DNA from: Escherichia phage vB_EcoM_JNE01
Sequence record: OR670491
DNA length: 64,000 nt
Strand: one strand, 5' to 3'
A program made the position numbers and the translations under genes. The notes below the pieces were generated by a model, which made no database searches, had not been told where the DNA came from, and was given only the letters and a program-made list of their open reading frames with translations. Below are positions 1 to 39,655 of the stretch, in pieces; position 1 is the first letter of the stretch; every line of letters begins with the position of its first letter.

Positions 1-62
1 TAATTAAAAAGGATACACTACTCTTAAGGGACATTGATTCAAAAAACCGCATTCGTGCTAAT

Positions 63-365
63 ATGTTTATTGCCCAGAATACTGAAGAAGAATTATCAGT
101 AAGTGATAACACCGAAAAGACAGAGACAGGTGCATATACTATTGACACCTTCAGTGAAGAATGGTATTTTCAAAACAGCCTTCTTCATCATTTACGCCCG
201 TATCAGGATACAAAATCGTTATGGGATATCTATCAAGTACTGAAATGTTGGGACGGGGGTTCTATTGATATGTTATCAGAGATGACTTCAAACTATTCCA
301 ACAGCACTATTGACACAGATGTAGTACTGAAAAAACTATGGAGCATGGTTGCTACTATAGATTAA
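63..365 (+). CDS. hypothetical protein (100 aa)
   Basis: Complete ORF in co-directional gene train; terminator hairpin directly downstream. Confidence 0.5.
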   Translation: MFIAQNTEEELSVSDNTEKTETGAYTIDTFSEEWYFQNSLLHHLRPYQDTKSLWDIYQVLKCWDGGSIDMLSEMTSNYSNSTIDTDVVLKKLWSMVATID

Positions 366-375
366 AAAAAAACGA

Positions 376-402
376 GCCGGAGTGTTGACTTCGGCTTTTT
401 TG
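376..402 (+). terminator. rho-independent terminator
   Basis: Stem GCCGGAGT/ACTTCGGC with GTTG loop followed by T-run. Confidence 0.55.
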
Positions 403-433
403 TTTGGTACTATATCTAAAAATAGGAGGATTT

Positions 434-988
434 ATGAGTTCAAGTTGTGACACCTTGTTTGAGCTATGCACCGATTCGCAGTTTGAAGGATGGGTGGATA
501 AAGTTAATGAATTAAGCGAACGTTATGCACGTTTCGTACAACTCGGTGAGTCTCTAAGTAACTTGCCGTTTACTGAGACTGGGGAAAGAGGAAGTTTAAG
601 TTATAAATGTGATGCATTGCGTTTAATTTTATCATATGATGGTTACCCATTTCTAAGATTATATCCACGTTCAAGAAATTCCAATAACTTGAATAATATA
701 ATTACACCACTATTTTTAACTTATAATACTCACAGTACTACACGAATTAAAATCAATAATGATATGCTACCGGACGATATATTAACAGTGTATGACCTCA
801 TGTACAGTCCTGATGAGCATTTTCAGTGCAGTACTCTATATAGTGTTCCTACCTATGAGAACGCTATTAAAACATTGGAGTTGATGCACAGTATTCAAGT
901 CCAAAGTGAACTATCATTAACGATGGAGTATTGTTTCTTCAATCATGATATTCTTAATAATCTAGATACAATTTTATACGGGTACTAA
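434..988 (+). CDS. hypothetical protein (~184 aa)
   Basis: ORF; ATG at 434 preceded by AGGAGG; alternative upstream start 404. Confidence 0.5.
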   Translation: MSSSCDTLFELCTDSQFEGWVDKVNELSERYARFVQLGESLSNLPFTETGERGSLSYKCDALRLILSYDGYPFLRLYPRSRNSNNLNNIITPLFLTYNTHSTTRIKINNDMLPDDILTVYDLMYSPDEHFQCSTLYSVPTYENAIKTLELMHSIQVQSELSLTMEYCFFNHDILNNLDTILYGY

Positions 989-989
989 T

Positions 990-1604
990 ATGCGTAAAGA
1001 ATATGTTCAATCTTTTGCTATGTTGCAGCATTTAGAAGAAATACTACCACAGTGTATCAATTTTCAAAAAAGTATATACAAGAAGTACAGTATTTGTTCT
1101 CATATGACACTCCAACATAAGAAGTCAAATTTCTATACAGTGTATGATGATTATAATATCTTCTTAAAAAAGAACGGGTGTGACCTTCTTCATATTGAAA
1201 AGTGCAGTCCTAACAAAAATGACTACAGTGATGAATATGTGTTTATGCCTGAATATGATGAAGTGTATATTAATCCATGTTCGGATTTCACATTTGTTTT
1301 GCACAGCGATGACGATGACTCTGTTTACGATGTTTATGGCGTGTATAATGCAAAGTCTAAGATCATGTCATATGATGGCATTGACTTTAAAATTAAATCT
1401 AAAGATGATTGCGAAGCAGCACTTGCACAAATATTGACATTAGCTAATGTAACTATCAGTACAGACGAAGTGTGGAGTATGATTTCAGTACTTACTTCTT
1501 TGTACAGAAATAAAGATATACGTAATTTTAATATATCTTTTACTGAAACGTTTGATATTAAAAATAAATTGGTAACTGGAAATGAACTATTCGAATCTAA
1601 TTGA
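990..1604 (+). CDS. hypothetical protein (204 aa)
   Basis: Long ORF, + strand, tightly packed. Confidence 0.5.
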   Translation: MRKEYVQSFAMLQHLEEILPQCINFQKSIYKKYSICSHMTLQHKKSNFYTVYDDYNIFLKKNGCDLLHIEKCSPNKNDYSDEYVFMPEYDEVYINPCSDFTFVLHSDDDDSVYDVYGVYNAKSKIMSYDGIDFKIKSKDDCEAALAQILTLANVTISTDEVWSMISVLTSLYRNKDIRNFNISFTETFDIKNKLVTGNELFESN

Positions 1605-2178
1605 AAATGCAAGAAACCTGAAAGGAATCAAAAACCTTTGGAGTACCTATGAATTTAATTTTCCCAAAAGTTCAGGTCTAGAAAGTTTAAATGTAGATAT
1701 CAAATTCCGTTATAATAATGGCATGACTGGAAAGATTAGGCTACATAAACTGGGTGTTACGTTCTATGATGACTGCGACCACAGTGTAGGTTTGGTAGAG
1801 TTCATTGACAACATGCAACAGGGTGAAAATTATATATGCAGTAGGATTGGTTCTGATGATTCTGAATTTATCATCGGTAATGGTTTACAATTCCATCTCA
1901 CTGAAGACTGGGATGAAGATTATTATGTGTATGATTATGAAAGTAAAAACATTTTTGATGAGAGTGATTCTCTTGTCACAGACCTCAACGAGCGTATCTT
2001 CCAGAAGAGTACTATCCAAGATAATGTGAGAACTCCAGAAGAAATTGTTGACATGTGCAATGCGTATGATACACTTATGGATATTATGAAAACTGATGGT
2101 ATCCAGTACATTTATCTTTGCGATGATGTATACGTGAACCAAATTCTGAAACGACTTGAGACATTTACTAAGAGGTAG
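1582..2178 (+). CDS. hypothetical protein (198 aa)
   Basis: Long ORF overlapping upstream gene end by a few codons. Confidence 0.5.
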   Translation: MNYSNLIENARNLKGIKNLWSTYEFNFPKSSGLESLNVDIKFRYNNGMTGKIRLHKLGVTFYDDCDHSVGLVEFIDNMQQGENYICSRIGSDDSEFIIGNGLQFHLTEDWDEDYYVYDYESKNIFDESDSLVTDLNERIFQKSTIQDNVRTPEEIVDMCNAYDTLMDIMKTDGIQYIYLCDDVYVNQILKRLETFTKR

Positions 2179-2180
2179 TT

Positions 2181-2597
2181 ATGTTACTGTATCATGCCAG
2201 CCCAGTTAAAATTGAAAACTTTTACATTCCATTCGGTGGTTTGCATCTGGGCGGCAAGAACAGTGCACTGGAAGCAGCCCTACGCAAGCTGAGAAGCCCT
2301 CTGAACGTCGTAGACGCTAATACGGTACATCTGCATACCTGTGAGGTTAACGTCGCTAACGTGTATTTCAGTGATGATTTGGGTAGTGATGATTCATGGC
2401 GTGAGCTTATTGAGTACTGCCAAGCTAATGGCTATGATGCAGTACAGTACAAGAATGAGTTCGAGCCTGATGCTGTTCCTAGCTACATGATTTGGGATGT
2501 ATCTAACATTCGCATCGTTGAAGTTGATCCTATGCATATGGATGATGCAGAAATGATTTTGGAGGATTTCTATGCAGAGTATGAAGGACAATCTTGA
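2181..2597 (+). CDS. hypothetical protein (138 aa), compositionally atypical (GC-rich)
   Basis: ORF; visibly higher GC than neighbours (e.g. 2221-2340). Confidence 0.5.
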   Translation: MLLYHASPVKIENFYIPFGGLHLGGKNSALEAALRKLRSPLNVVDANTVHLHTCEVNVANVYFSDDLGSDDSWRELIEYCQANGYDAVQYKNEFEPDAVPSYMIWDVSNIRIVEVDPMHMDDAEMILEDFYAEYEGQS

Positions 2598-3105
2598 GTG
2601 CACTAAGGTAATCTTGAAGATTGCTGAAATTTTCAGTACTTTATTGAGCGATGGAAAGATTACAGATGATCTGGTTCTTCCATACCCGTGGAAATTTTCT
2701 AAATTTTCTATATTTTATAAATTAGAATACAAAGAACATGCAGTACTGGAGTTTAATCCTAAAGCTGATTTCATTGAGAATAGTACACTGTTCGGAAAGA
2801 GTGGGTGCTATACATCGGACTTCAAAAAGATTACTACGCATATTCGTCCTTCTCCAGAAGAAAACGAGTTCCATTCATTTCTGTATCCTGAATTTAAGTT
2901 AACTGAAGAACTACTATTTCAGTACTCATTATTGTTCGAAGATGTACAAGATTTAGAGTTCTATAAAGAGTTAGTAGAAACTTTTAAGAATGTGAACCTT
3001 AAAAAAGATATTCTTATATTCTGGTTCATGGAGTATATTTCGAAGGATTTGCTAGATGAGTTTCTTCTAAATATGACAGCAATTAAGGAGAAGTTATATG
3101 CTTGA
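2572..3105 (+). CDS. hypothetical protein (177 aa)
   Basis: Long ORF. Confidence 0.5.
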   Translation: MQSMKDNLECTKVILKIAEIFSTLLSDGKITDDLVLPYPWKFSKFSIFYKLEYKEHAVLEFNPKADFIENSTLFGKSGCYTSDFKKITTHIRPSPEENEFHSFLYPEFKLTEELLFQYSLLFEDVQDLEFYKELVETFKNVNLKKDILIFWFMEYISKDLLDEFLLNMTAIKEKLYA

Positions 3106-3571
3106 CATTTTAGGTAATATTGATACAGTAAACTATTTCGTACAAGATGCATTGGTTGGGATTACGTCTAAGCCATTGCAGGTTCGCAACAATTTCCATC
3201 AGGGTGATGGATACATTGTGGACATTACTGAACCGAAAAAGAATGTATTCAATGTTAACATTGCAACAACAGGTCGTAACAATATCGCACGAATTATCAT
3301 TGACAAGAATGAAATTGTTCTTCGTTACAATGCTAAGTTCATGATGTTCTTCAAGAGTAAGACTGACATGTTCAGTACTAATCTCTTTGATGAACCATTT
3401 AAATTAGAAGATATCGAAGCAGTATTCTTTACTCAGAGTACGTGCTTTAAGTTCAGAGATGTAGAATTCAGTCCAGATGTAATGACTGAAACTTTACAAA
3501 TGCTAAGGATTATCTATTATGGGTTTAATGAGTTTGCACAAGAACGAAACCAGGTTAACAACTGTAGATGA
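3098..3571 (+). CDS. hypothetical protein (157 aa)
   Basis: Long ORF, start overlaps previous stop. Confidence 0.5.
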   Translation: MLDILGNIDTVNYFVQDALVGITSKPLQVRNNFHQGDGYIVDITEPKKNVFNVNIATTGRNNIARIIIDKNEIVLRYNAKFMMFFKSKTDMFSTNLFDEPFKLEDIEAVFFTQSTCFKFRDVEFSPDVMTETLQMLRIIYYGFNEFAQERNQVNNCR

Positions 3572-3977
3572 AACAATCGAGGCAGTACTGGCGAATCTTA
3601 GCTCCAAAAGGGATTACTGGTACAAAGGTATCCGTCTGTATCGTTTAACTGATCGTCACAATCAGGTTACGAATCAGTACGGTACACAGCAAGTCAAGTT
3701 CACTGCCTCAAAACGTAACACAGGGTTTGAAATTTCATGTGTAGTGTTAAATCTAAGTAAAAAACTTCTTGAATGCAATGAAGATTGTGCTATAATGTAT
3801 GCATCTGGTAACGAAGAGATCAAGATCGATTACAGTACACTAGATGAAATTGACTTCTTTCAGTACGAATGCATTGGCATTCAGACTCTAGGAGTTTCTC
3901 ATGATAAACTGAAGAAACTAATTCATACATTAAAAGGTATAATTGAACATGCAAGTAACTCCGCGTCTAAAGCTTAA
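3519..3977 (+). CDS. hypothetical protein (152 aa)
   Basis: Long ORF. Confidence 0.45.
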   Translation: MGLMSLHKNETRLTTVDETIEAVLANLSSKRDYWYKGIRLYRLTDRHNQVTNQYGTQQVKFTASKRNTGFEISCVVLNLSKKLLECNEDCAIMYASGNEEIKIDYSTLDEIDFFQYECIGIQTLGVSHDKLKKLIHTLKGIIEHASNSASKA

Positions 3978-4452
3978 TTTAGAAAAAATTGCTGATTATC
4001 TTCGTACTAACAATATGGAACATAGTCTTTCGATTACAAGTGACCATATCCAATGTAGTACTAATGATTATACTGTACTGTTCGGGTTTCATAGCCTACG
4101 TTTGTCAGTAGTAAATAATCATGATGATACAGCAATTGTCATTACACCTTGTGATGTACTGAACAATGATGGTGAAGTACTTCACAAGAAACAAACCGTA
4201 TTCCATATCTTCAGGGGTGATGAGCCACAAGCATTGGAATACGATACACTGAACGTTGATAGTGGTGAATTGTTCCAGTTGGGTTTAGTACATGATTGTA
4301 CTTTCATGGATAACCGAGTAATTCTTCCTTTGTTGTTGAATATTCTGGTTAACCTTACAACATCTTCAATCCGACACTTCAACGATTCTATTTTAGTACA
4401 GGCGATGATAAACGTTTCAGAGGCAATCGAGGAATACAAAGTCGCCAGTTAA
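3943..4452 (+). CDS. hypothetical protein (169 aa)
   Basis: Long ORF. Confidence 0.5.
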   Translation: MNMQVTPRLKLNLEKIADYLRTNNMEHSLSITSDHIQCSTNDYTVLFGFHSLRLSVVNNHDDTAIVITPCDVLNNDGEVLHKKQTVFHIFRGDEPQALEYDTLNVDSGELFQLGLVHDCTFMDNRVILPLLLNILVNLTTSSIRHFNDSILVQAMINVSEAIEEYKVAS

Positions 4453-4492
4453 CCAATGCACAGGGAGTGCGATAAAGGATCAAGGATAGATC

Positions 4493-4966
4493 ATGGAGAC
4501 GAAAACTGTTGAGAACGGAAAGATAGATGACATTTTAGAATTGGACGCATTTAAAGTTCATGATATAATGTTCAATGTTAAAGACATTATTCAGTGTCTT
4601 TTCTTATGTAGCAAAACTATGCATGACTACTTTCACAACCCAAATACTAACATCTTTATACTTACTATTAGTACTGAAAACTCTTTCATCATGGGTATGC
4701 CTATGAGTACTAATGAAAAGTACATTGATAGTGTAATCCGTAATAATGAGAACATAACCCCACAATCTGAAGTGCATAAGAAGAAAAATACTTATACCAT
4801 TAAAGATGATAAAATTATGTTATGTTGTACTAAGGGATTTATTTTGGATAATTTTAAAGTGAAAGATAGTTATCATGATTTCAAAATATCTGAAAAGCAA
4901 ACTAATGTAGTTTTATATGCCACCGATATTGAAAGCCTAACAGTTAAAGATCCTGATTTGGAGTAA
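4493..4966 (+). CDS. hypothetical protein (157 aa)
   Basis: Long ORF. Confidence 0.5.
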   Translation: METKTVENGKIDDILELDAFKVHDIMFNVKDIIQCLFLCSKTMHDYFHNPNTNIFILTISTENSFIMGMPMSTNEKYIDSVIRNNENITPQSEVHKKKNTYTIKDDKIMLCCTKGFILDNFKVKDSYHDFKISEKQTNVVLYATDIESLTVKDPDLE

Positions 4967-4968
4967 TT

Positions 4969-5100
4969 ATGGCTAAAAATGTAAACAACTTCGTTCAGAA
5001 ACACATGAATGAGTTTAACAAACCTCAAACCCATGTGGATCGCAAAAAAGCGATGAAGAATGGAAAAACAAAACACAAGTCGAGATATATTCTCGACTAA
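4969..5100 (+). CDS. small basic protein (43 aa)
   Basis: ATG 3 nt after upstream stop; lysine-rich MAKNVNNFVQKH...; not in ORF track (<60 aa). Confidence 0.35.
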   Translation: MAKNVNNFVQKHMNEFNKPQTHVDRKKAMKNGKTKHKSRYILD

Positions 5101-5119
5101 TTTTTTGCCTGGAGAAAGT

Positions 5120-5953
5120 ATGAAAGAATTTGATTACAAAAGTAAGTCAGTACTGGAATACATTGAATTACTAAATTCTAAAAATATTCCATTCGATGAT
5201 ACCAAGCTCCTTGGAAATGGAGATGAAAATTCATATAGTACTGAAAACTATGTAATCATTATTTCAAATGCAGCACCAGATATTGACATTACAGTACATA
5301 AGAAAAATAATGCCGCAGTGTTTATGTATACTCAAGATAGTAAATCAGAGTACTTACATTTCAGGGATATGAATTACTACAAAGAGAATGGTGAATTTAT
5401 ATTAAAATACAATATACTAAAGAATATCGAATTAAAAAAAGCACGATACTTTGATGGTGCTTATGACGTTAAAAGTTCAGATAAGCTTTGTATATTCACC
5501 ATGCATAAAAATATAGAAAAAGACAATGGATGGACTGAATTTGAAACTAAGTTCGATGAACAGAAAGTTTCTAATTTGTCAATACAAGAACGTTATGAAG
5601 GTTCAGATGTAGTGTGCAGTGCTGCTTACTTTCGTGCATTTGATAACACAACGAAACGTATGCAAATGCAAAACATTGACATTACGTTCAATGAAGGGTA
5701 TAGTACTGTTACTATTTCTTCAGGATATCGAAACAAGTTTACATTTGAGGTAGCAGTTCCAGACGGGTCAATTCTACACATATTTGACCCTGAATATATG
5801 TTCCAAGTTGAATTAACACTTGACACAGAGCAGTATGATAAATTACAATTTATTAGAAATTCAATCCAAGAAAAATTGGAATTATACCACTTACTAGGTG
5901 GAAAGAATCACAAAGCAACAATAGCATTACAAAATATCAAAAGTAAAAGGTAG
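5120..5953 (+). CDS. hypothetical protein (~277 aa)
   Basis: ORF; ATG 5120 preceded by GGAGAAAG; track start 5060 overlaps small upstream ORF. Confidence 0.5.
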   Translation: MKEFDYKSKSVLEYIELLNSKNIPFDDTKLLGNGDENSYSTENYVIIISNAAPDIDITVHKKNNAAVFMYTQDSKSEYLHFRDMNYYKENGEFILKYNILKNIELKKARYFDGAYDVKSSDKLCIFTMHKNIEKDNGWTEFETKFDEQKVSNLSIQERYEGSDVVCSAAYFRAFDNTTKRMQMQNIDITFNEGYSTVTISSGYRNKFTFEVAVPDGSILHIFDPEYMFQVELTLDTEQYDKLQFIRNSIQEKLELYHLLGGKNHKATIALQNIKSKR

Positions 5954-5972
5954 TTCAAGGAGAGGATTTAGT

Positions 5973-6266
5973 ATGGATACTAAATTTACAATAAAGTTTC
6001 TAGATGAGCCATGTATTCCATATATTGGTGACAGGTTCAAGCCTTATGGTGCGAAGGAAGTTACGCATCCTGATGGCAAAACAATATATTTGGCCCCAGC
6101 GTCTTATGAGCGAGCAGTTGAAATGCTTATCATGAATTCTAAGTATTGCAAAGACAAATATATTAGTTACTTATACAATGAACATGTGTTAGACTTCAAT
6201 GACGAAAACATGTTTGTACTGGTAGTTTCAGATTTTAGTACTTGGCACGAACATCTGTTGTACTAA
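5973..6266 (+). CDS. hypothetical protein (97 aa)
   Basis: ORF with GGAGAGG upstream. Confidence 0.5.
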   Translation: MDTKFTIKFLDEPCIPYIGDRFKPYGAKEVTHPDGKTIYLAPASYERAVEMLIMNSKYCKDKYISYLYNEHVLDFNDENMFVLVVSDFSTWHEHLLY

Positions 6267-8082: not shown

Positions 8083-8102
8083 AAATTAGTGATATAATTT
8101 AA

Positions 8103-8134
8103 GGTGATAGCAGAGTTGTTATCACCTTTTTTTT
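8103..8134 (+). terminator. rho-independent terminator
   Basis: GGTGATA...TATCACC stem followed by 8 T. Confidence 0.7.
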
Positions 8135-15643: not shown

Positions 15644-15906
15644 TGGACATACAATCTCAATTACAATTGTTAACAGTACTTGAAGATGCGGCGTTTCAGG
15701 TTGTATCAGATATAAACAAATTACTCCCACCTGGAACTAAAGTACGTGTTAGAGAGAAGAGTTATAATACTTTCGAAATAGTTGAACAGGAATTAACTGT
15801 AAAAAAAGTAACTTATTATGACTCAACATTATGTATTCAGTGCGAAGATAAAGACGAGATGTTATTGTATTATAATCAACACACAGATATAGAGGTAATA
15901 TCATGA
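15643..15906 (+). CDS. hypothetical protein, dispersed small paralog family B
   Basis: ~85 aa; shares [LV]xD...G[KT]KVR core with 19148, 19398, 22117, 23118; start 15631 or 15643. Confidence 0.45.
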   Translation: MDIQSQLQLLTVLEDAAFQVVSDINKLLPPGTKVRVREKSYNTFEIVEQELTVKKVTYYDSTLCIQCEDKDEMLLYYNQHTDIEVIS

Positions 15907-17045
15907 CACATTTACAAATATACGAAGACCTAATGCACTTGTGCAAAACAAATGAAGCATTTTTTTATGTTGATCATAAAAGTCCGGCTGGTGGTACATA
16001 CCGTGTATTCACCTATCGTCTGGCTTCTTACACAGATTTCAGTCTTCCTAATGCACTGGAAACACGTGGTTCTATGTGGGAGATTGATGAAGATGGTGAA
16101 ATGATTCGTTGTGCTTCGCGTGCAATGAAAAAGTTCTTCAATGCTTACGAGAACCCATTTACAATGTTCAGTCCAGATACAACATGCGATGATATTGCTA
16201 TCGTGATGCCTAAACTGGATGGTTCAATCATCAGTACATTTCGTGATAATGATGGTGAAATCCGTTGTAAATCACATACTTCCTTGTCATCTGACCACGC
16301 AATTAACAGTACTCGACTATTGAACGAGAACCGTAATTTGTATGATTATGTAGACGAAGCTGAACGTTTAGGTTATACTGTGAATCTGGAGTATACAAGT
16401 CCAGAGTACCGAATAGTATTACCATATCAAGTAGAACAGTTATTTGTACTTAATGTTCGTCATCGATTGAGTGGTGAGTTGTTATGCGGTGCTGCATTAC
16501 GTTCGAAGTTCCCTTGTTTAGCACAATACAGTACTAACATGACAGGTAATAACATCTGTTCATCGTTTCCGGTGCGTTCTACCTTCAAAGAAAGTGTAGA
16601 TGAAGTACGTAAAATGGTTGACATTGAAGGATTTGTGTGTATCCTAAATAATGGTACAATGTGCAAATTGAAAACTGATTGGTATTGTTCATTGCATCTT
16701 ACAAAAGACAGTATTCTTATACCGTCACATTTGTACGAAACTGTACTCAATGATGCCAGTGATGACCTGAAACAATTGTTCAGTACTGATGAATATGCAA
16801 TGCAGTTGATATTAAAAATGGAACAGCGTGTCTTTTCATGCTATAATGCTTTACAAGATGAAGTAGAGAGCTTCGTCCAACAATACAAGCACTTGGAGCG
16901 AAAGGAATTCGCAATGAAGGTTCAGGAATGTCTTAAGAATGAACTGAACCGTCAGGGCTTGGCCTTTGCGTTGTACAACGGTAAAGTGGTGAATTATAAA
17001 GAAACTTTATTGAAGTACTACAAAGATGTACTAAAGGATTTTTAG
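15903..17045 (+). CDS. rnlA: RNA ligase 1 (T4 Rnl1-like)
   Basis: N-terminal FFY...SPAGGTYRVFTYRLASYTDF...ALETRG and ligase motif I KLDGS align with T4 Rnl1 as recalled. Confidence 0.85.
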   Translation: MTHLQIYEDLMHLCKTNEAFFYVDHKSPAGGTYRVFTYRLASYTDFSLPNALETRGSMWEIDEDGEMIRCASRAMKKFFNAYENPFTMFSPDTTCDDIAIVMPKLDGSIISTFRDNDGEIRCKSHTSLSSDHAINSTRLLNENRNLYDYVDEAERLGYTVNLEYTSPEYRIVLPYQVEQLFVLNVRHRLSGELLCGAALRSKFPCLAQYSTNMTGNNICSSFPVRSTFKESVDEVRKMVDIEGFVCILNNGTMCKLKTDWYCSLHLTKDSILIPSHLYETVLNDASDDLKQLFSTDEYAMQLILKMEQRVFSCYNALQDEVESFVQQYKHLERKEFAMKVQECLKNELNRQGLAFALYNGKVVNYKETLLKYYKDVLKDF

Positions 17046-18140: not shown

Positions 18141-19085
18141 ATGCCGACTATTACATTAACAGTTGGTTTGCCAGGATGTGGTAAAACTACATGGGCTGTT
18201 GAAGCAATTCGAAAAGCAAAGTCAAAGACTGTCAATATCAACCGTGATGACATTCGTGAGTCAATGGCTGGTTCACATGATGCATACAAATTCAACGACG
18301 CTAATGAGCAGTACGTAACTACATTACAGTTCAGTGCAGCCGATTTAGCAGCTAAGAATTCGTGGAACATCATCGTTTCTGACACGAACCTTAAACAAGG
18401 TTTTCGTGATAAATGGAAAATGTGGGCTTCAGACAATGGGTACGACTACAAAGAAAAAGACTTCTATCAGGATTTTGAACCTAAAGAAGACCGTGGTGCT
18501 GATGTACATGAATTCTTTAAGATTAAAGAATATGTAAAACTTTGTAAGACTCGTAACCTAAAACGCGAACGTTCAGTACAGGACAGTATCATTGATACTA
18601 TGGCACATACGTACTATTACAGTAAAATGCGTATGTTCAATGCGTATGAGCTTCAGAATTATGACTCATTACCGCATTGTATTATTGTTGATATCGATGG
18701 TACACTAGCTCATAAAGGGGGTCGTAATCCATTCGATGAAAGTACTGTCCTACAGGATACTCCAGACGAGGAAGTAATTCTTTCAGTAATTGCAGAAGCA
18801 CAGTTCTTTAAACGCAAGATTATCGTTATGTCCGGCAGGACTGAAGGGTGCAGAGAAGATACTGAGAAGTGGTTACTGACTTGGGGTGTGCCTTATGATG
18901 AACTATATATGCGAGCAATTGATGATAAACGTCCTGATGATGTAGTTAAGTACGAGTTACTATCTAAACACGTTGCTGGGAAGTACACGGTCAAGAAGGT
19001 TTATGATGACCGTGAGGCAGTAACATTTATGTGGCGTAACCTAGTAGGATTGAAAGTATTCCAAGTCGAACCTGGATTATTTTGA
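18141..19085 (+). CDS. pseT: polynucleotide 5'-kinase/3'-phosphatase (T4 Pnk-like)
   Basis: Walker A GLPGCGKTT, NINRDD, HAD motif IVDIDGTLA; overall pattern like T4 PseT. Confidence 0.85.
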   Translation: MPTITLTVGLPGCGKTTWAVEAIRKAKSKTVNINRDDIRESMAGSHDAYKFNDANEQYVTTLQFSAADLAAKNSWNIIVSDTNLKQGFRDKWKMWASDNGYDYKEKDFYQDFEPKEDRGADVHEFFKIKEYVKLCKTRNLKRERSVQDSIIDTMAHTYYYSKMRMFNAYELQNYDSLPHCIIVDIDGTLAHKGGRNPFDESTVLQDTPDEEVILSVIAEAQFFKRKIIVMSGRTEGCREDTEKWLLTWGVPYDELYMRAIDDKRPDDVVKYELLSKHVAGKYTVKKVYDDREAVTFMWRNLVGLKVFQVEPGLF

Positions 19086-19130: not shown

Positions 19131-19147
19131 TCTAAGGATAAAGTACT

Positions 19148-19405
19148 ATGGATATGTTACAAGTGCAATTAAAACAAAGTACTGACTTGATACTTTCTAT
19201 TATTGAAGATCTAAATCAACAGTACTTAGGAAAACGTGTCATAACTCATACAAAGATTAAAGGGTTTGTTTCGTTAATTTATTTTAATTCATATGAAAAT
19301 AAACTATGCGTTCGAATTAGAACCATAGATGAAGAAACTGGGTATGAGGATGGTGGATTAGCATCTATACCTTTTCAAAATTTAAGGTTATTAGAAGATG
19401 ATTAA
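19148..19405 (+). CDS. hypothetical protein, paralog family B
   Basis: ...EDLNQQYLGKRV...; related to 19398. Confidence 0.5.
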   Translation: MDMLQVQLKQSTDLILSIIEDLNQQYLGKRVITHTKIKGFVSLIYFNSYENKLCVRIRTIDEETGYEDGGLASIPFQNLRLLEDD

Positions 19406-20897: not shown

Positions 20898-21518
20898 ATG
20901 TTAACAACACTAGCAATTATTTGGGTTCTTGGTGTAATCATCACTGCTATGCTTGCATACAATCACAATCGCAATATCATTGGGTATTCTGTACTCGGTG
21001 TAGTACTGTCACCTGTGATTTCAATCGGTGTTCTCCTAATGCTAGGTGAACGCAACCCCAATCTATTCATCAATGACAACCGTGATAAGGTTACACCAGT
21101 ACCAGAAACTGTTATTCCTGAAGAACTAGCACCTGCACCGGAAGTTGTTGAAGTAATAGAAGAAGTCGTGGAACCTGTCAAACCAGTACCGCCAGTATTC
21201 CCTGAAGTGCAGGTTGTTCCTGAAGTTAAAAAGCATAAGTCCAATAAGTCCTCAAAGAAAGCACGATATACTAAAGGCAAGAACAAAGGTAAGAAACCAG
21301 ATACCCAAAGCACTTCCACTTCCACCACAACCACCACCAATACCCCTGATAACGCAGCAGGCATCGCTACAGCAGCCGTAATGACTGCCCTGTACGTTGG
21401 TGACGATTACAGTGATTACACCACTACAACGACGTATAGCTCGTCCTCTGACACTTCTTCATATGACAGTTCCAGTTCATGTGATAGCAGCAGTTCTTCT
21501 TCTGGTAGTTGTGATTAA
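20898..21518 (+). CDS. membrane protein with Pro/Val/Glu-rich linker and Ser/Thr-rich tail
   Basis: Two N-terminal hydrophobic segments; low-complexity PEVVEVIEEVVEPVKPVPP and T/S runs. Confidence 0.5.
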   Translation: MLTTLAIIWVLGVIITAMLAYNHNRNIIGYSVLGVVLSPVISIGVLLMLGERNPNLFINDNRDKVTPVPETVIPEELAPAPEVVEVIEEVVEPVKPVPPVFPEVQVVPEVKKHKSNKSSKKARYTKGKNKGKKPDTQSTSTSTTTTTNTPDNAAGIATAAVMTALYVGDDYSDYTTTTTYSSSSDTSSYDSSSSCDSSSSSSGSCD

Positions 21519-25265: not shown

Positions 25266-26684
25266 ATGAGCATTCTATCTATTATCGAAAACATTAAAAG
25301 TGTTAGCAGTACCCTTGGCAAGAAAGCTATCCTGGAAGAGAACAAAGATAATGAAACTCTCAAGAAAGTACTGAAATATACACTAGACCCTAGTATTGTA
25401 AGTGGCTATAAGAAGCTACCAGAAGCCCATGACGCATCTCAACATATGTCATTGGATGAAGCTATAGATAAGCTGGAATGCATCTATAAGCGTGATGTGA
25501 CGGGCCATGCAGGGCGTGATTTCATTGCTTCAGTACTGGGTAGTGTAAGTCCAGATGATGCTGAAGTTATTCGTAAGATGCTTACCAAGAACCTAGATTG
25601 TGGTATTCAAGAGAAGAACTGTAACGATGTATTCGGTAAAGGTTTCATCAAAGATGAACCATATATGCGTTGTTCTTTGCTTGATAAAAAGACTGTTAAG
25701 AACATCAACTTCAAAGGTCATGGTTATGCTGTCTCCGAGGTCAAAATGGATGGCACTTACCTGAACCACGTAGTTATCAATGGTTCTCTTACTTCTTCCT
25801 CCCGTAATGGTAAACTATATGACTTCTTAGGTTGTCGTGATGGTGAGATGGCAGGTCTTGCACATCAAATCCAAATGAATGATGATCGTTTTAGTAGTGG
25901 CGTAGTCTTTATGGGCGAAGGTCTAGTACTTGATAATGACGGTGAAACTATTCTCCCACGCACAACTGGTAATGGTATCATCCAGAAAGCTGGGAAAGAC
26001 AGTATCAACCAAAATGAAGCAATGCGTACTGTATTTGTCCTGTGGGATGTTGTTCCTTATGATGCATTCTGCGACGGTACATGGAACGTAAAACGTAAAG
26101 AACGTCGTGAACTGCTTGAAAATGCAATCAATGCATTGGGTAGTGAATTTGTCCGTATGGTGAAATACCGTAAGGTTAAAAACATCAAAGAAGCATTTGA
26201 GTACAATAACGAACTCATGGAACAGGGTGAAGAAGGTTCAGTACTGAAATGTGAAGATGGTGTCTGGAAATCACATACGTCTCCTAAGCAGTTGAAAGTA
26301 AAACTAAAAATGCAATTGGATTTGCGTATTGTTGGCTTCAACGAAGGTGAAGGTAAACGTAAAGGTTCACTTGGTTCTTTACAACTCGAAAGTGCATGTG
26401 GTACACTAAAAGTAAATGTAGGAACAGGTATCAAAGAGAAAGATGCAGAGTGGACATTCAAAACCATTTGGGAACGAATGCAAGAACTAATTGGTAAAGT
26501 CGTTACCGTTGAGTGTAATGAAATAGTTATTGACAGTAAAACTGGTGAACCATCACTATTTTTACCAGTGTTTATTGAATTTAGATTTGACAAAAACACG
26601 TGTGACGATTATACTCGTATCTTAGAAATTCGTGATAGTGCTGTTGAGGTGTTCTCTAACAGTATCATTGAATCAATAGCTTAA
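25266..26684 (+). CDS. ATP-dependent DNA ligase (T4 gp30-like)
   Basis: N-terminus ...KKAILEENKDNETLKKV... resembles T4 ligase; motif I KMDGTY. Confidence 0.8.
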   Translation: MSILSIIENIKSVSSTLGKKAILEENKDNETLKKVLKYTLDPSIVSGYKKLPEAHDASQHMSLDEAIDKLECIYKRDVTGHAGRDFIASVLGSVSPDDAEVIRKMLTKNLDCGIQEKNCNDVFGKGFIKDEPYMRCSLLDKKTVKNINFKGHGYAVSEVKMDGTYLNHVVINGSLTSSSRNGKLYDFLGCRDGEMAGLAHQIQMNDDRFSSGVVFMGEGLVLDNDGETILPRTTGNGIIQKAGKDSINQNEAMRTVFVLWDVVPYDAFCDGTWNVKRKERRELLENAINALGSEFVRMVKYRKVKNIKEAFEYNNELMEQGEEGSVLKCEDGVWKSHTSPKQLKVKLKMQLDLRIVGFNEGEGKRKGSLGSLQLESACGTLKVNVGTGIKEKDAEWTFKTIWERMQELIGKVVTVECNEIVIDSKTGEPSLFLPVFIEFRFDKNTCDDYTRILEIRDSAVEVFSNSIIESIA

Positions 26685-26702: not shown

Positions 26703-27494
26703 ATGAAATTTGTTGTAACATCTGACGTACACGGTGGAACTAATTACCTCCATAGCGGTGATTACAGTGACGTAGTACTGATCATTGCTGGTGACTTTGA
26801 CGAAGTAAAGCGTAGTCGTTATCGTACCGGAATCGAAGAACTGTGTAAGCAGTTCTATAAGGTAGTACTGGTTCCTGGGAATCACGAATACTACGGTTCC
26901 AATATCCAAAAGACGCATCAAGTACTGTCCACTATGCAGGATGAGATTCCTAATTTCATCTTCCTACAAAACAAGTTCCAGTTCATTGGTGATGTACTGC
27001 TCGTTGGTAGTACTCTGTGGACTGACTTTGATAAAGGTAATTCACTGGTTAAGTTTGATGCTAAGATGAAGATGAATGATTACAAACACATTCGTCATGG
27101 CACTACGTCTGAACCTTGGCGTAAGAAGCTGACCCCTGAAGATACTGAGTTCATGCACCATCAGGATAAACAATTCATCAAGAATGCGATTTGTAGTGCT
27201 CGTTTGATGAGTGGTGATGATATTAAAGTACTGGTAGTTACTCACCACGCACCGAGTTACCAAAGTGTATCTCCACGATATAAGAATGATTCACTGAATG
27301 GCTGTTACTGTTCTGATATGGATCAGTTCATCGAAGATGTAGGAGCAGATGTATGGGTACATGGTCACGTACATAGCAGCTTTGACTACAATATCGGAAA
27401 GACACGTATTATTTGTAACCCAAAAGGTTATGAGTCATTTAGTGGTGCATCTGAGAACTTCGACTACAATCCACAATTTGTATTTGAAATCTAG
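26703..27494 (+). CDS. calcineurin-like metallophosphoesterase
   Basis: Motifs SDVHGG, GDFDE, GNHEY, THHAP, GHVHS. Confidence 0.7.
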   Translation: MKFVVTSDVHGGTNYLHSGDYSDVVLIIAGDFDEVKRSRYRTGIEELCKQFYKVVLVPGNHEYYGSNIQKTHQVLSTMQDEIPNFIFLQNKFQFIGDVLLVGSTLWTDFDKGNSLVKFDAKMKMNDYKHIRHGTTSEPWRKKLTPEDTEFMHHQDKQFIKNAICSARLMSGDDIKVLVVTHHAPSYQSVSPRYKNDSLNGCYCSDMDQFIEDVGADVWVHGHVHSSFDYNIGKTRIICNPKGYESFSGASENFDYNPQFVFEI

Positions 27495-28364: not shown

Positions 28365-29060
28365 ATGGTTGAACAATTTATGTTTGGTGGTTATGCAAAT
28401 GGTGAAGTACGTAACATTTCTATTCCTTATGTTGTAGAAAAAGTTAACGGTTCAGAACGCACATATGACTTGGCATCTCGTATGATGCAAGACCGTATCC
28501 TATTCTTGGATACCGATTTCAACGACCAGATGGCACACATTATCAAACAACAATTGGTATGGCTTGATTCACAAGGTGATTCTCCAATCACTATGTATAT
28601 CTCGTCCCCAGGCGGTTCAGTTCACGCTGGTTTGGGTATTGCTGATGTTGCAAAATCCTGTATCTCTCCAATTCGTACTGTTGTTATGGGTTATGCTGCT
28701 TCTATGGGTTGCTATACTCAATCAGTACTGGGTACTAAGGGTTATCGTCTAGGTGGTAAGCGTTCATTCTTCATGTGTCACCAAGTAAGTTCTGGTACAC
28801 AGGGTTTGATTACTGACCAGAAGATTTCTTTGAGGCATTCTGACTCTCTGAACACGCTTCTAACGAAAGAAATCGCTGAAGCAGTAGGTGTGTCTCATGA
28901 ACAACTTCTGAAAGACGCAGACCGTGATTTGTGGCTAAATGCAGAAGAAGCACTTGAGTACGGCGAACATGGTTTCATTGATGGTATCATCCTTGGGCCA
29001 CGTGATGAAGCTGGTAAGTACCTTGTTAAGCGTCGTGGCGGCGTGGAAGAGTGGGTGTAA
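28365..29060 (+). CDS. clpP: ATP-dependent Clp protease proteolytic subunit (ClpP-like)
   Basis: SPGGSV, catalytic-Ser motif GYAASMG, His motif MCHQVSSG, Asp region RDLWLNAEEALEYG. Confidence 0.8.
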   Translation: MVEQFMFGGYANGEVRNISIPYVVEKVNGSERTYDLASRMMQDRILFLDTDFNDQMAHIIKQQLVWLDSQGDSPITMYISSPGGSVHAGLGIADVAKSCISPIRTVVMGYAASMGCYTQSVLGTKGYRLGGKRSFFMCHQVSSGTQGLITDQKISLRHSDSLNTLLTKEIAEAVGVSHEQLLKDADRDLWLNAEEALEYGEHGFIDGIILGPRDEAGKYLVKRRGGVEEWV

Positions 29061-34917: not shown

Positions 34918-35670
34918 ATGTCTACACAATCCTTTTTAGAAAAAGCAGGGGAAAAACGTTTACTGATAATCAGCGGGGCTGGGTTATCGGTTGAAAGTGG
35001 GATGGAGCCATTTCGTTTTGATGATGGCTTATGGGATAACTTTCAAATCAATGACGTGTGTAATATTGCACGTCTTAGTTCCAAATATCATATAGTACAT
35101 GCATTCTATAATACTCTAAGAGTAAAATTAGGTTCGTGTGAACCAAATGCAATGCACTATTACATCAAATCATTAGAGGATCAGTACAAAGATAATTTCT
35201 TACACATGACCTCCAATATGGATGATTTGTACACTCGAATCGGTGGAACCGAGTTGAAGCTTCATGGTAATCTACGAGAAGTTATTAAAAACTACTCAAT
35301 CAATAGTGATGACTATGAAGTAATTGACTGTGGTTATGAACCGTTCATTCCAGAGACTGATGTGTTCTCTAAACCAAATGTTGTTATGATTGGTGAATAT
35401 CATCGTTATGTGGATGGGAACCGTCTTCCTATCTACGAAGAACGAAATGAAGTGTTGCGTAGTCTTACTGAAAATGATACAGTAATTGTTATTGGGAGCA
35501 GTGATACAGTACTGGTATGGTCCAGACTAGCTGGGGCGTTACCTTGTTATAGTGTTACTGTTAACGTCAGAAAGAATGACAATGACTTCCTATTCAATGA
35601 ACGTATCATTAAGCCAGCAACTAAAGCAATTCCAGTACTGGAGCCAATCATTAAGGAAAGAATGAAATGA
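34918..35670 (+). CDS. Sir2-family protein (NAD+-dependent deacylase/ADP-ribosyltransferase/NADase-like), no Zn-ribbon module
   Basis: GAGLSVESGMEPFRFDDGLW, TSNMDDLYTRIGG, KLHGNL, VIVIGSSDTVL match sirtuin motifs; ATG 34918 after GAAAGG. Confidence 0.65.
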   Translation: MSTQSFLEKAGEKRLLIISGAGLSVESGMEPFRFDDGLWDNFQINDVCNIARLSSKYHIVHAFYNTLRVKLGSCEPNAMHYYIKSLEDQYKDNFLHMTSNMDDLYTRIGGTELKLHGNLREVIKNYSINSDDYEVIDCGYEPFIPETDVFSKPNVVMIGEYHRYVDGNRLPIYEERNEVLRSLTENDTVIVIGSSDTVLVWSRLAGALPCYSVTVNVRKNDNDFLFNERIIKPATKAIPVLEPIIKERMK

Positions 35671-36888: not shown

Positions 36889-38328
36889 ATGAAAAAATAT
36901 ACAATTGACACAAACGTACTACTATCTGATCCAAATGCTACCATTGCTTTTGATGGAGCAGCTATCATTCTACCGTTCACAGTACTTGAAGAATTGGATT
37001 CAATCAAAAGTCGTAATGTGGATGTTTCCCGTGATGCTCGTGTTGCAATCCGTAATATTGAAGCAATCCTTTCTGATGCATCACATGAAGAAATTAGTAG
37101 TACTGGTGTTAATATTGCTGATGTTCATACTAATATGAGTCCTGAAAGCAAATTGTTTGTTATTACAAGCGAAGAAGCTGAAGCACTAATTCGCACTGCT
37201 GGTAACGAAGAGAAAGTTCAAACTCTTCTAAAAAGCACAGTACCAGATGATAAAATCATTTTAGTAGCATTAGCAACTGATTCAGTACTGGTTACCCGTG
37301 ATATCAATATGCGTATCAAGGCTCTAAGCTACGGGGTGGAAGTTCAAGATTACCGTCATGATATCGTGATTGGTGATAGTGATTTGATTCACATTGGTCA
37401 ACATCACCTTGACCTACATTTCTGGGATGTGTATAGTAATCTGACTGATGTATCTATTCAGTCTGAACAAGTTGGTCGTCGTTTGTACCACTACATTCCA
37501 AAAAGCTTGATTGAACATATCATGCCACAAAATATTTGCATCGGTGATTACCTATATGATAATGCTGATGTTCTATTTGTGTACGAAGGCCAATCTGCAA
37601 TTGAAGAAGATGATGGTACTTTAACACCAGAAGATATTCTTGTATTCCAAGATATTGGACAATCTGTTGCTCTACGTGCTAAAGTGTGGGATATTAAGGC
37701 TAAGAATATTCAACAAGCACTAGCAATCAACAGTATCCTAGATCCTGATGTTCATCTAACAGTACTGTTGGGTTCCGCAGGTACTGGTAAAACGCTAATT
37801 ACCATTGCGACTGCACTTGAATTGGTTCTTGAGAAGAAGAAATATGACCGTATTATGTTCTCAAAACCACAAGATTCACAATGGGCCGAAATCGGTTTCT
37901 TACCAGGCACTGAAATGGAAAAAATGCTACCACATTGTGGCCCTGCATTGGATGCTTTGGAATTCTTACATAAAGATGATGCATCACCACAAGGTAGTAT
38001 TGAGGAAATAATCAAGCGTAATGTTATTCAGTTCAAAGCATTGAACTTCATTCGCGGTCGTTCATTTACCAACACTATTCTGGTTGTGGATGAGTTTCAG
38101 AACATCACACCTGCTCAGGCTAAGACAATCCTTACCCGTGCTGGCATGAACTGCAAAGTGATTATTCTTGGGAACTTGGCACAGATTGATAGTAAATTCA
38201 TTAGCCCAGTTAACAGCGGCTTAACATATGTTGTTGAGAAATTTAAAAACTGGGATGGTTGTCGAGTAATCGAACTCGAAGGTGTTGTTCGTTCACCACT
38301 GGCAGAATTTGCTGAAGAAAATATGTAA
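36889..38328 (+). CDS. phoH: PhoH-like ATPase with N-terminal PIN domain
   Basis: PIN-like YTIDTNVLLSD...; Walker A LLGSAGTGKTLITIA; Walker B-like ILVVDEFQN. Confidence 0.8.
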   Translation: MKKYTIDTNVLLSDPNATIAFDGAAIILPFTVLEELDSIKSRNVDVSRDARVAIRNIEAILSDASHEEISSTGVNIADVHTNMSPESKLFVITSEEAEALIRTAGNEEKVQTLLKSTVPDDKIILVALATDSVLVTRDINMRIKALSYGVEVQDYRHDIVIGDSDLIHIGQHHLDLHFWDVYSNLTDVSIQSEQVGRRLYHYIPKSLIEHIMPQNICIGDYLYDNADVLFVYEGQSAIEEDDGTLTPEDILVFQDIGQSVALRAKVWDIKAKNIQQALAINSILDPDVHLTVLLGSAGTGKTLITIATALELVLEKKKYDRIMFSKPQDSQWAEIGFLPGTEMEKMLPHCGPALDALEFLHKDDASPQGSIEEIIKRNVIQFKALNFIRGRSFTNTILVVDEFQNITPAQAKTILTRAGMNCKVIILGNLAQIDSKFISPVNSGLTYVVEKFKNWDGCRVIELEGVVRSPLAEFAEENM

Positions 38329-38374: not shown

Positions 38375-39655
38375 GTGATAATAAAACATCTGTATTATAT
38401 TGACTCAAATTTCAGAAAATACGATAAAGTTTCAAAACTTAATCCAAAATACATTACAGATGTTATTTTCCAAGAAAAATACAACATAGATCGAAACAGT
38501 ACTGAAATACTACAGGATGATATATCATCATATACACCAAACGTAACGGGTTTTTATTATATAAAATACCCAACTGGTGTTAGAAAAGTTTATGCTTTAA
38601 AATGTAATGAGTGCTCTAAAAACTCAGTATTACATGGCGAAGGAATATATCTGGTTCACTTGTCACACATCAAAAACGGAATCATTTCGTGTGGGTGTGC
38701 AAAACGCACAAACTGGACACCATATCAATATTACATAAAAATGATATCAGAATGTAAAAATCGTAATTGCATTTTTTTAGGTTACGATAAAAAACACTTA
38801 CGTTTATATTGTCTCGAACATGGTTACTGGAATACCACATCCAAAGCACACTTCTTTAATGGGAAAGGATGTAGTAAATGTGGGGACACCAATTCAAGAG
38901 TGTTGAGAACAAAAGACAGTTATTTTCATATATCTAAATTTAAAATCTTAAATGCGTATAATTATCGACGTTCCGACAAGATTGATAGTAGTGGTCGCTT
39001 GCGTTATTGGGAATATATGTGTAAGAAATGTTCACATGATGAGTATGTTAGGCTCGGTTTGTGTAATGGGATTTTTACATCATTTAATAGTGATTTAGTA
39101 AAGGGTAAGAAATCATGTCGTTGTTCAAGTAACTATAGATGGACAGAAAAACAGCGTGAATATCAAATCACCAAACTCCTAAAATCCAATTTTCCTCACA
39201 TTAGCTTTAAAGGTTGGGTAAATAGTTATAAAAATATCCATAGTAAGGCGATTTTAAATTGTAATATTCATAATAATTATACGCAAAAAGTAAACTACAT
39301 ACTTAATAATAATTGTGGTTGTCCACAATGTGCTGGGATGACACAGACAGAATGTTATATAAATGTAATATATGATGTGTTTCCAATTGCTATAAAATAT
39401 GGAATTTCAACACATACAAAAAACCGCGTTTGTAGTCAAAATAATAAATCACCATTTGACGTTATTAATCATGGAATTTGGGATTTTGAAAATCCATATT
39501 TATGCAAAATGGCAGAAAATGAATGCAAGCGAACGGTAAGTCGTGTTCTATCAGAACGCGAGCTACCTGACGGATTTACTGAAACCGCTGAAGTGAAATA
39601 TATTGATGATATAATTAAAATATATGAAAGCTGGGGTGGTATCAAACGAAAATAG
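38375..39655 (+). CDS. Cys-rich multi-CxxC protein (426 aa), very AT-rich gene
   Basis: Repeated CxxC/CxC motifs (CNEC, CGC, CSKCGD, CKKCSHDE, CRCSS, CGCPQC); lower GC than flanks. Confidence 0.5.
   Translation: MIIKHLYYIDSNFRKYDKVSKLNPKYITDVIFQEKYNIDRNSTEILQDDISSYTPNVTGFYYIKYPTGVRKVYALKCNECSKNSVLHGEGIYLVHLSHIKNGIISCGCAKRTNWTPYQYYIKMISECKNRNCIFLGYDKKHLRLYCLEHGYWNTTSKAHFFNGKGCSKCGDTNSRVLRTKDSYFHISKFKILNAYNYRRSDKIDSSGRLRYWEYMCKKCSHDEYVRLGLCNGIFTSFNSDLVKGKKSCRCSSNYRWTEKQREYQITKLLKSNFPHISFKGWVNSYKNIHSKAILNCNIHNNYTQKVNYILNNNCGCPQCAGMTQTECYINVIYDVFPIAIKYGISTHTKNRVCSQNNKSPFDVINHGIWDFENPYLCKMAENECKRTVSRVLSERELPDGFTETAEVKYIDDIIKIYESWGGIKRK

Follow-up and report, generated by a model that had tools for sequence, protein, structure and literature searches.

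A small predicted ADP-ribosyltransferase from the vertically inherited core of the Rak2-like jumbo phages

The window analysed here is a 64,000-nucleotide (nt) stretch of Escherichia phage vB_EcoM_JNE01 (sequence record OR670491), and the gene under study is an open reading frame (ORF) at 2181-2597 on its + strand that probably encodes an ADP-ribosyltransferase (ART). The frame runs from an ATG start to a TGA stop and specifies a protein of 138 amino acids (aa) beginning MLLYHASP, exactly as described in a first-pass annotation of this DNA made from the sequence alone. An exact match to the protein is WOL22591.1, recorded for Escherichia phage vB_EcoM_JNE01 as a "hypothetical protein". Over positions 1500-3300 the DNA shares 98.8% identity with Escherichia phage Turkey5 (PQ471516, 351 kb); both phages belong to the Rak2-like jumbo myoviruses and are related to Asteriusvirus PBECO4 and 121Q. 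The features of the gene on which the argument draws are as follows:

2170-2175, + strand: Shine-Dalgarno-like AAGAGG, 5 nt before the ATG, read from the sequence
2181-2597, + strand: ART coding sequence, predicted to specify a stand-alone ART-PolyVal-like ADP-ribosyltransferase of 138 aa
2190-2201, + strand: strand-1 motif Y4-H5-A6-S7, of the form Y-H-[small]-[S/T], in the strand modelled at residues 2-7
2232-2315, + strand: local spike in guanine-plus-cytosine (GC) content over codons 18-45, 57% against the 44% expected from the amino acids
2235-2255, + strand: strand-2 motif G19-G20-L21-H22-L23-G24-G25, modelled as strand 21-24 and then helix 26-38
2376-2399, + strand: acidic/aromatic pair D66-x-G68...W73 after strand 4, recognised by its conservation
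2448-2483, + strand: Y90-K-N92-E-F-E95-P-D97...S101, comprising a strand, the putative active-site loop and the start of the next strand

The stop codon of the upstream gene (1582-2178) lies at 2176-2178, between the AAGAGG and the ATG of the ART gene. The match of the protein among the PHROGs is PHROG 11632, of "unknown function"; the orthologs in two GenBank records (ph0011 and Muenster) already bear the label "putative ADP-ribosyl transferase", and nearly every other database record of the gene reads "hypothetical protein". The literature searched held no experimental work on the gene or its orthologs.

The assignment to the ARTs is supported by profile comparisons. A profile of 14 orthologs, run against 1.84 billion representatives, retrieved 111 protein clusters, mostly stand-alone proteins of 115-150 aa, and it also matched domains inside proteins of 1100-3000 aa that carry the ART-PolyVal family PF18760 at the matched positions; one such domain was found at E 4.5e-7 (1.84 billion proteins), exactly where PF18760 maps. 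Alignment of the orthologs with ten large-protein domains by hhalign gave 99.4% probability and E 1e-21 over 123 columns, and nine of the ten match PF18760. The window protein itself does not reach the PF18760 gathering threshold (31.2 bits) and has no match to the family at E<=1. In a 57-member alignment PF18760 was matched by 8 members and by none of the Rak2-type ones; the 8 are taken to be the segments added from larger proteins, since those segments also match PF18760 when searched on their own and the window protein does not. As judged from these alignments, the ART gene product is homologous to ART-PolyVal domains across the whole domain. It is a divergent stand-alone relative of that family (PF18760, Tox-ART-HYD2-like, H-Y-[EDQ] clade) that falls below the Pfam threshold.

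Other candidates from the family and structure searches were discarded. GOLD_PATL1_C (E 0.24) and CbrC (E 0.034), both at chance level, were all that direct searches of Pfam, NCBIfam, PADLOC and PDB sequences yielded for the protein, and a wider profile run against the PDB returned rhodocetin alone (E 0.12). A PDB profile match to "RecA" at E 1.5e-7 arises spuriously from fusion chains in which RecA is concatenated six-fold: taken singly, each repeat scores about 4 bits (E about 400).

The predicted structure is consistent with the same family. An AlphaFold2 model built on 14 orthologs (predicted local distance difference test, pLDDT, 89.3; predicted template modelling score, pTM, 0.81) runs in the order strand 2-7, strand 21-24, helix 26-38, hairpin 48-56/61-65 and helix 70-82, followed by strands 87-91, 101-104 and 110-119 and a helix at 120-135. 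By structure comparison the model displays the fold of the ART superfamily, with a split beta-sheet core and, on strands 1 and 2 and in the strand-5 region, the residues that would bind nicotinamide adenine dinucleotide (NAD+). Foldseek against the predicted viral structures of BFVD returned ART-PolyVal-like domain proteins, MuF fusions and polyvalent proteins, with E down to 1e-6, and a Roseobacter phage's N4-like virion RNA polymerase was among the neighbours.

Conservation was assessed over 101 aligned domains, in which overall identity to the query falls to 20-35%. Twelve positions are near-invariant and all are intact in the window copy: H5 (96/97 aligned domains), F14, G20, H22 (100/101), G24 (100/101), A29, D66 (99/101), W73 (98/101), and Y90, N92, E95 and S101 (each 101/101). 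The ART-PolyVal domains share with the protein the pattern YH[GAS][ST]...G-x-H-[FL]-G...D-x-G...W...Y-x-N-x-[YF]-E...S-[YF], as well as the predicted fold and a phage setting. On strand 2, H22 would stand at the place of the nicotinamide-stacking Tyr of PARP and diphtheria toxin, or of the Phe in the G-G-L-F-G of AcrIF11, a sequence that we confirmed against 6KYF. The PARP1 counterpart of this strand is G-I-Y-F-A. On strand 1, Y-H-A-S matches the NAD-binding H-G-[ST] of the H-Y-[EDQ] ARTs, which is HGS in PARP and HGT in diphtheria toxin (motif table, PMC7955679). The pair D66/W73 possibly has a substrate-side or structural role.

Towards the C-terminus, V-Q-Y-K-N92-E-F-E95...S101-Y-M-I aligns by motif with V-E-M-E-D115-E116-H-G-T-T-W-L of AcrIF11, an enzyme that is inactive without D115 and in the family of which no structural element is better conserved than this loop (PMC12421852). 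E95 is the sole invariant acid of the Y90-S101 segment, and we infer from its conservation that it is the candidate catalytic acid. With the model confidence (pLDDT 89) and the hhalign probability, these invariant residues support one half of a tentative hunch in the first-pass annotation, that the protein recalls ADP-ribosyltransferase or Tpt1-like folds; the Tpt1-like half does not survive, as discussed below.

The active site of ART-PolyVal has been described as H/Y/D (Iyer et al., 2017, PMC5512222), whereas in the jumbo-phage branch H/H and N...E are invariant. Set against the published triad, H5 is present, strand 2 carries the invariant H22 and no Tyr, N92 and E95 are invariant in the strand-5 region, D86 is not conserved, and the invariant D66 lies after strand 4. 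The PF18760-positive domains aligned here also show H/H/N..E, so the published triad may refer to another sub-branch of ART-PolyVal; the branch with H/H/N..E comprises stand-alone jumbo-phage proteins and many modules of polyvalent proteins. In the polyvalent domain with the best PF18760 score, Glu takes the place of N92. One 2517-aa polyvalent protein carries PF18760-type domains of two flavours (residues 775-920 and 1516-1635), one in which strand 1 reads Y-R-G-T and Glu occupies the N92 position, the other jumbo-phage-like with H/H/N..E, a juxtaposition which, at the level of sequence, suggests sub-families with different active sites inside PF18760.

The distribution of the gene points to vertical descent. 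Six phages, of at least four genera, were compared for synteny, and in all of them (Turkey5, the Asteriusvirus ph0011, the Alcyoneusvirus RaK2, GAP32 and XbC2 (Mimasvirus), and Salmonella phage 7t3) an ortholog occupies the same slot, with eight to ten ORFs of ~190 aa on its 5' side and an ORF of ~180 aa plus a conserved ORF of ~155 aa on its 3' side. Protein identity to ph0011 is 31, 32, 38 and 30% for four upstream genes, 76% for the ART, and 52, 67, 39, 46 and 89% for the next genes downstream: the ART gene is an island of constraint within a fast-evolving region. A megablast search with 1500-3300 gave a similar picture, the ART gene being the sole part still recognised in Asteriusvirus genomes.

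By tblastn the ART is present in 73 phage records, all jumbo genomes, whose hosts are Escherichia, Klebsiella, Salmonella, Erwinia, Cronobacter, Serratia, Yersinia, Pectobacterium, Vibrio and Xanthomonas. The gene at 4493-4966 occurs in 71 records, nearly the same set with the same host spread. A further 13 ART loci come from IMG/VR, where each lies either on a contig of 345-371 kb or on a fragment. Apart from identical copies, no relative exceeds 77% identity, and no close homolog was found outside the Rak2-like phage clade. The ART gene is a vertically inherited core gene of the Rak2-like jumbo phages (Asteriusvirus, Alcyoneusvirus, Mimasvirus and relatives). Recent horizontal acquisition, which the first-pass annotation had suggested, is not supported: the slot shared by all six phages contradicts it, and the spread over 73 records and the lack of a donor speak against it. 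Two Salmonella phage orthologs, those of SD-6_S16 and SD-15_S21, appear damaged or mis-annotated: one lacks residues 17-38, including the invariant H22, and has an unrelated C-terminus, which suggests a frameshift, and the other is annotated as 211 aa.

We consider it likely that the gene encodes a small single-domain NAD+-dependent ADP-ribosyltransferase of the stand-alone ART-PolyVal branch, vertically inherited as part of the Rak2-like core. In the proposed mechanism, H5 (in Y-H-A-S on strand 1) and H22 (in G-L-H-L-G on strand 2) would hold NAD+ and stack on its nicotinamide, and E95, in the loop after strand 5, would with help from N92 stabilise the oxocarbenium transition state, as D115/E116 do in AcrIF11. 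The enzyme would be produced after infection, from an operon whose small genes share one strand, and not be injected with the virion. The ortholog in phage phAPEC6, gp408, is not among 62 virion proteins found by mass spectrometry, which argues that the enzyme is made after infection, like ModA, ModB and AcrIF11, and not injected like Alt or the polyvalent proteins.

A single ADP-ribose would then be moved to a target that enterobacterial, Vibrio and Xanthomonas hosts have in common. Broad conservation of the target is expected because phages infecting many host genera carry the ART as a core gene, and most plausibly it would be a host transcription or translation protein, as for T4 ModA/ModB, or a widespread defence protein, as for AcrIF11. 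Among jumbo phages, those that encode no RNA polymerase are reported to have the most ARTs, with host RNA polymerase as the presumed substrate (PMC7824862), and ART-PolyVal domains have been predicted to modify host proteins (PMC5512222).

Several observations weigh against this proposal. Pfam, NCBIfam and PDB sequence searches of the protein itself gave no direct match, even at E up to 1-10, and the best structural matches of the model are RES toxins, which degrade NAD+ or modify Prs and do not act on host transcription proteins. At the presumed active site, the invariant Asn N92 sits, by motif, where AcrIF11 and one polyvalent domain have their catalytic Asp/Glu, and on strand 2 a His replaces the Tyr of the published ART-PolyVal site. 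Genes within 5 kb of the ART have no family assignment and hence offer no pointer to its target, and the conserved neighbour at 3098-3571 has no recognisable fold. Lastly, the absence from the virion rests on the single proteome of a related phage, phAPEC6.

Comparison with better-known ARTs sharpens what is proposed. The ART-PolyVal domains are modules of giant virion-delivered proteins, the polyvalent proteins of phages and conjugative elements, whereas the jumbo-phage ART is a stand-alone protein of 138 aa with an ortholog not found in a virion proteome. The anti-CRISPR mono-ART AcrIF11 (PDB 6KYF/8DWQ) aligns by hhalign at only 42.8%, over 31 N-terminal residues, a level at which the two do not count as members of one family, and it has D115/E116 where the jumbo-phage ART has N92 and a variable residue 93. 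AcrIF11 is moreover a patchy accessory gene of Pseudomonas elements directed against type I-F Cas8f, in contrast to the core gene described here, whose presence in phages of many host genera makes a narrowly anti-CRISPR function unlikely. The likeness to T4 Alt/ModA/ModB, mono-ARTs that reprogram host RNA polymerase and translation factors, is one of functional analogy only. ModA and ModB are made after infection and are not injected, as is proposed for the jumbo-phage ART, but the T4 enzymes are larger and belong to another clade (R-S-E site), with no sequence or specific structural match to it. The jumbo-phage protein does not fit the R-S-E ARTs, a group that also takes in C3/VIP2-like enzymes and is marked by an Arg on strand 1, S-T-S on strand 2 and (Q/E)-x-E.

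Among the alternatives, one takes the unusual active site at face value. With H/H, an Asn at the usual acid position, a Glu at +3 and the conserved D66, W73 and S101, the protein could be a mechanistically distinct ART that departs in substrate or chemistry from classical protein mono-ADP-ribosylation, its acceptor being for example a nucleic acid, a nucleotide signal or a small molecule, and that acts at a universal host-takeover or counter-defence step of the Rak2-like phages. We regard this as unlikely.

Also unlikely is an enzyme that degrades NAD+, whether as an NADase or, in the manner of the RES toxin MbcT, as an NAD+ phosphorylase, which would alter the NAD+ pool or destroy NAD-derived defence signals. 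The structural matches noted above are to enzymes of this kind. The RES toxins (MbcT, ParT, NatT and Res) have Arg/Glu/Ser residues and antitoxin partners, however, and the jumbo-phage ART has neither: it has His in place of Arg on strand 1 and no Pfam RES match, and no recognisable antitoxin-like partner lies beside it. Sequence homology likewise favours ART-PolyVal over RES, and depletion of NAD+ would starve the phage's own NAD users, such as the SIR2 protein encoded at 34918-35667.

The case for an ART directed at nucleic acids, whether a Tpt1/KptA-like RNA 2'-phosphotransferase or a DarT-like or CmdT-like enzyme, is poorer again, and we doubt it strongly. Its appeal is that the protein could work with the RNA-repair genes of the phage, and Tpt1/KptA, of the H-H-h clade, does share with it the ART superfamily and histidines on strands 1 and 2. 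The protein has neither the R-H-R-R tetrad nor the two lobes of Tpt1/KptA, one of them an N-terminal RNA-binding lobe, and it gives no Pfam PTS_2-RNA match.

Very unlikely, in our view, is a catalytically dead pseudo-enzyme of ART fold that acts by binding its target. Eight polar or aromatic residues (H5, H22, D66, W73, Y90, N92, E95 and S101), among them the His of the NAD motif and the acid of the loop, are invariant in ~100 sequences of 20-35% identity, as is typical of an active enzyme, and AcrIF11 is active despite a similarly non-canonical H-F-H-D set (PMC12421852).

There remains the composition of the gene, which had prompted the claim of foreign origin. Its GC content is 43.6% (56.8, 31.7 and about 42.4-42.8 at the first, second and third codon positions, GC1, GC2 and GC3) against 35.9% for the window and, as the first-pass annotation had rightly seen, it exceeds that of both neighbours (35.0% for 1582-2178 and 32.6% for 2572-3105). 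Among 106 heuristic window genes, with a mean gene GC of 35.6%, it ranks highest (z 2.3), the runners-up being close behind (20898-21518 at 43.3% and ClpP, 28365-29060, at 43.1%), and in a 417-nt sliding window it stands at the 98.8th percentile, the window maximum of 45.8% lying elsewhere, at ~21 kb. A wider pool of 257 genes joins the 106 window genes to 151 from Turkey5 1-45.8 kb and 160-210 kb; there the ART ranks 10th in GC (z 1.84) and 19th in GC3 (z 1.53), and the major capsid gene, at 44.3%, lies above it. The local contrast is real, but the gene is not an outlier: it stands at the upper end of gene-to-gene variance and inside its range, the very outcome that the first-pass annotation had named as refuting its idea. 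As a compositional anomaly the ART gene is ordinary.

The excess has two parts. The amino acids of the protein and the codon usage of the window together predict 39.1% GC, so that ~3.5 points of the excess are compositional; the remaining ~4.6 points are synonymous (GC3 42.8% observed against 30.0% expected; simulation against window codon usage, P 0.0002). The excess is thus partly driven by amino acids, and its synonymous part is concentrated in codons 18-45, which hold the string quoted in the first-pass annotation. The product of this block is a conserved motif rich in Gly/Ala/Arg/Leu, GGLHLGGKNSALEAALRKLRSP, better conserved than any other peptide block of the ART; the GC3 of the codons is 61% against 25-32% for the same block in four orthologs. 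At synonymous differences from the ph0011 ortholog the vB_EcoM_JNE01 copy is GC-richer 25 times and GC-poorer 7 times, a bias that in part tracks the generally higher GC of the vB_EcoM_JNE01 lineage (local background 34.6% against 31.3% in ph0011). The orthologs of ph0011, RaK2 and 7t3 exceed the GC of their surroundings by 8, 10 and 4 points, respectively; those of GAP32 and XbC2 are not raised.

Codon adaptation was rejected as the source of the high GC3, the fraction of E. coli-optimal codons ranking 38/106 and that of C-ending two-fold codons 41/106; the sole enrichment is of CTG-Leu (6/12). An RNA element in the GC-rich block was rejected as well, since its fold is no stabler than that of shuffles (z +1.29), and Rfam has no match in window positions 1-6000. 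A gene-conversion donor for 2232-2315 was not found among known phages: the block shares 78-82% identity with Asteriusvirus, in line with the remainder of the gene. What is left is a lineage-specific synonymous GC enrichment over 28 codons (2232-2315) that none of the causes examined fits. The raised GC is a by-product of the Gly/Ala/Arg/Leu-rich conserved motif together with a lineage-specific synonymous shift, and not a mark of foreign origin.

That the gene was recently acquired, its GC reflecting the composition of a donor, is on this evidence scarcely credible: the top rank among 106 window genes, the improbable GC3 excess and the 25:7 synonymous bias speak for it, and against it stand the z of 1.8 at rank 10/257, the slot filled in six phages of at least four genera, a spread (73 records) matching that of another core gene (71), the strongest conservation within the immediate neighbourhood, the want of any close homolog outside the clade or donor for the GC-rich block, and the raised GC of the orthologs in three other lineages.

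Other genes also populate the high-GC or high-GC3 tail, namely 20898-21518, a 206-aa protein without assigned function (43.3%; GC3 excess z 3.3), a calcineurin-like phosphoesterase (26703-27494) and ClpP (28365-29060, 43.1%). The 157-aa gene at 4493-4966 (PHROG 16362), which is 89% identical to ph0011 and 52-62% identical in other genera, is among the lowest in GC (29.7%) despite stronger conservation than the ART, which shows that in this genome GC does not simply follow conservation. Mean GC3 is 35.5% over ~114 genes of Turkey5 1-45.8 kb, against 30% in the window.

The remaining features of the locus and the positioned genes of the rest of the window are these:

374-397, + strand: terminator-like hairpin, from a consensus scan only, preceding the packed same-strand gene run that includes the ART
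2572-3105, + strand: downstream gene of 177 aa, overlapping the last 26 nt of the ART gene
15903-17042: Rnl1-type RNA ligase
18141-19082: PNKP
25266-26681: ATP-dependent DNA ligase
34918-35667: SIR2
36889-38325: PIN-PhoH
38741-39652: CapR

Nearly all window genes are on one strand (104 of the 106 heuristic genes on +). The same consensus scan placed further terminator-like hairpins at 5078-5098 and 8101-8128, the latter being the next strong one; promoter-like sites were not above shuffled expectation (52 against 43 +/- 7). The ribosome-binding site GGAGGA of the downstream gene lies at 2561-2566, within the ART gene, and the downstream gene is itself a fast-evolving positional ortholog found in all six compared phages. 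From 434 to 4452 the window is made up of tightly packed, often overlapping ORFs of ~150-205 aa around the ART, all of which match PHROGs of "unknown function"; they keep their position in six phages, although their sequences have diverged past 30-38% identity or can no longer be matched at all. Only one weak pair of paralogs (24% identity, E 4e-6) turned up among the upstream ORFs of ~190 aa, and the neighbours include no antitoxin-like partner and no defence-system match by PADLOC.

The window holds a set of RNA-repair and NAD-related genes, and further Pfam matches were made to cREC_REC, RlaP, DUF4326, Nudt16-like/NUDIX, Dam, NrdD/NrdG, dCMP deaminases and Anti-TRAP. Since SIR2 is encoded there, the phage has at least one other NAD+-using enzyme. 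A search of the six-frame ORFs with the family profile revealed no second ART copy in the window; a weak match at 19142-19402, an 87-aa ORF with a Y-x-N-x-x-E-like string (12.9 bits, E 0.002), is probably due to chance. In Turkey5, positions 1-26000 carry ~80 very small ORFs (30-130 aa) on one strand with regular gaps of ~60-100 nt, an array that looks like early genes with individual promoters.

The Rak2-like jumbo phages (PBECO4, 121Q, RaK2, GAP32 and relatives) have been considered for phage therapy, and more than 80% of their genes are without assigned function. One conserved gene among these now gains a specific biochemical prediction, that of an NAD+-dependent ADP-ribosyltransferase with named candidate catalytic residues, and is linked to the ART modules of injected polyvalent proteins. 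Its target, if found, would show by what means a phage that encodes no RNA polymerase gains control of, or disarms, hosts as varied as E. coli, Klebsiella, Erwinia, Vibrio and Xanthomonas.
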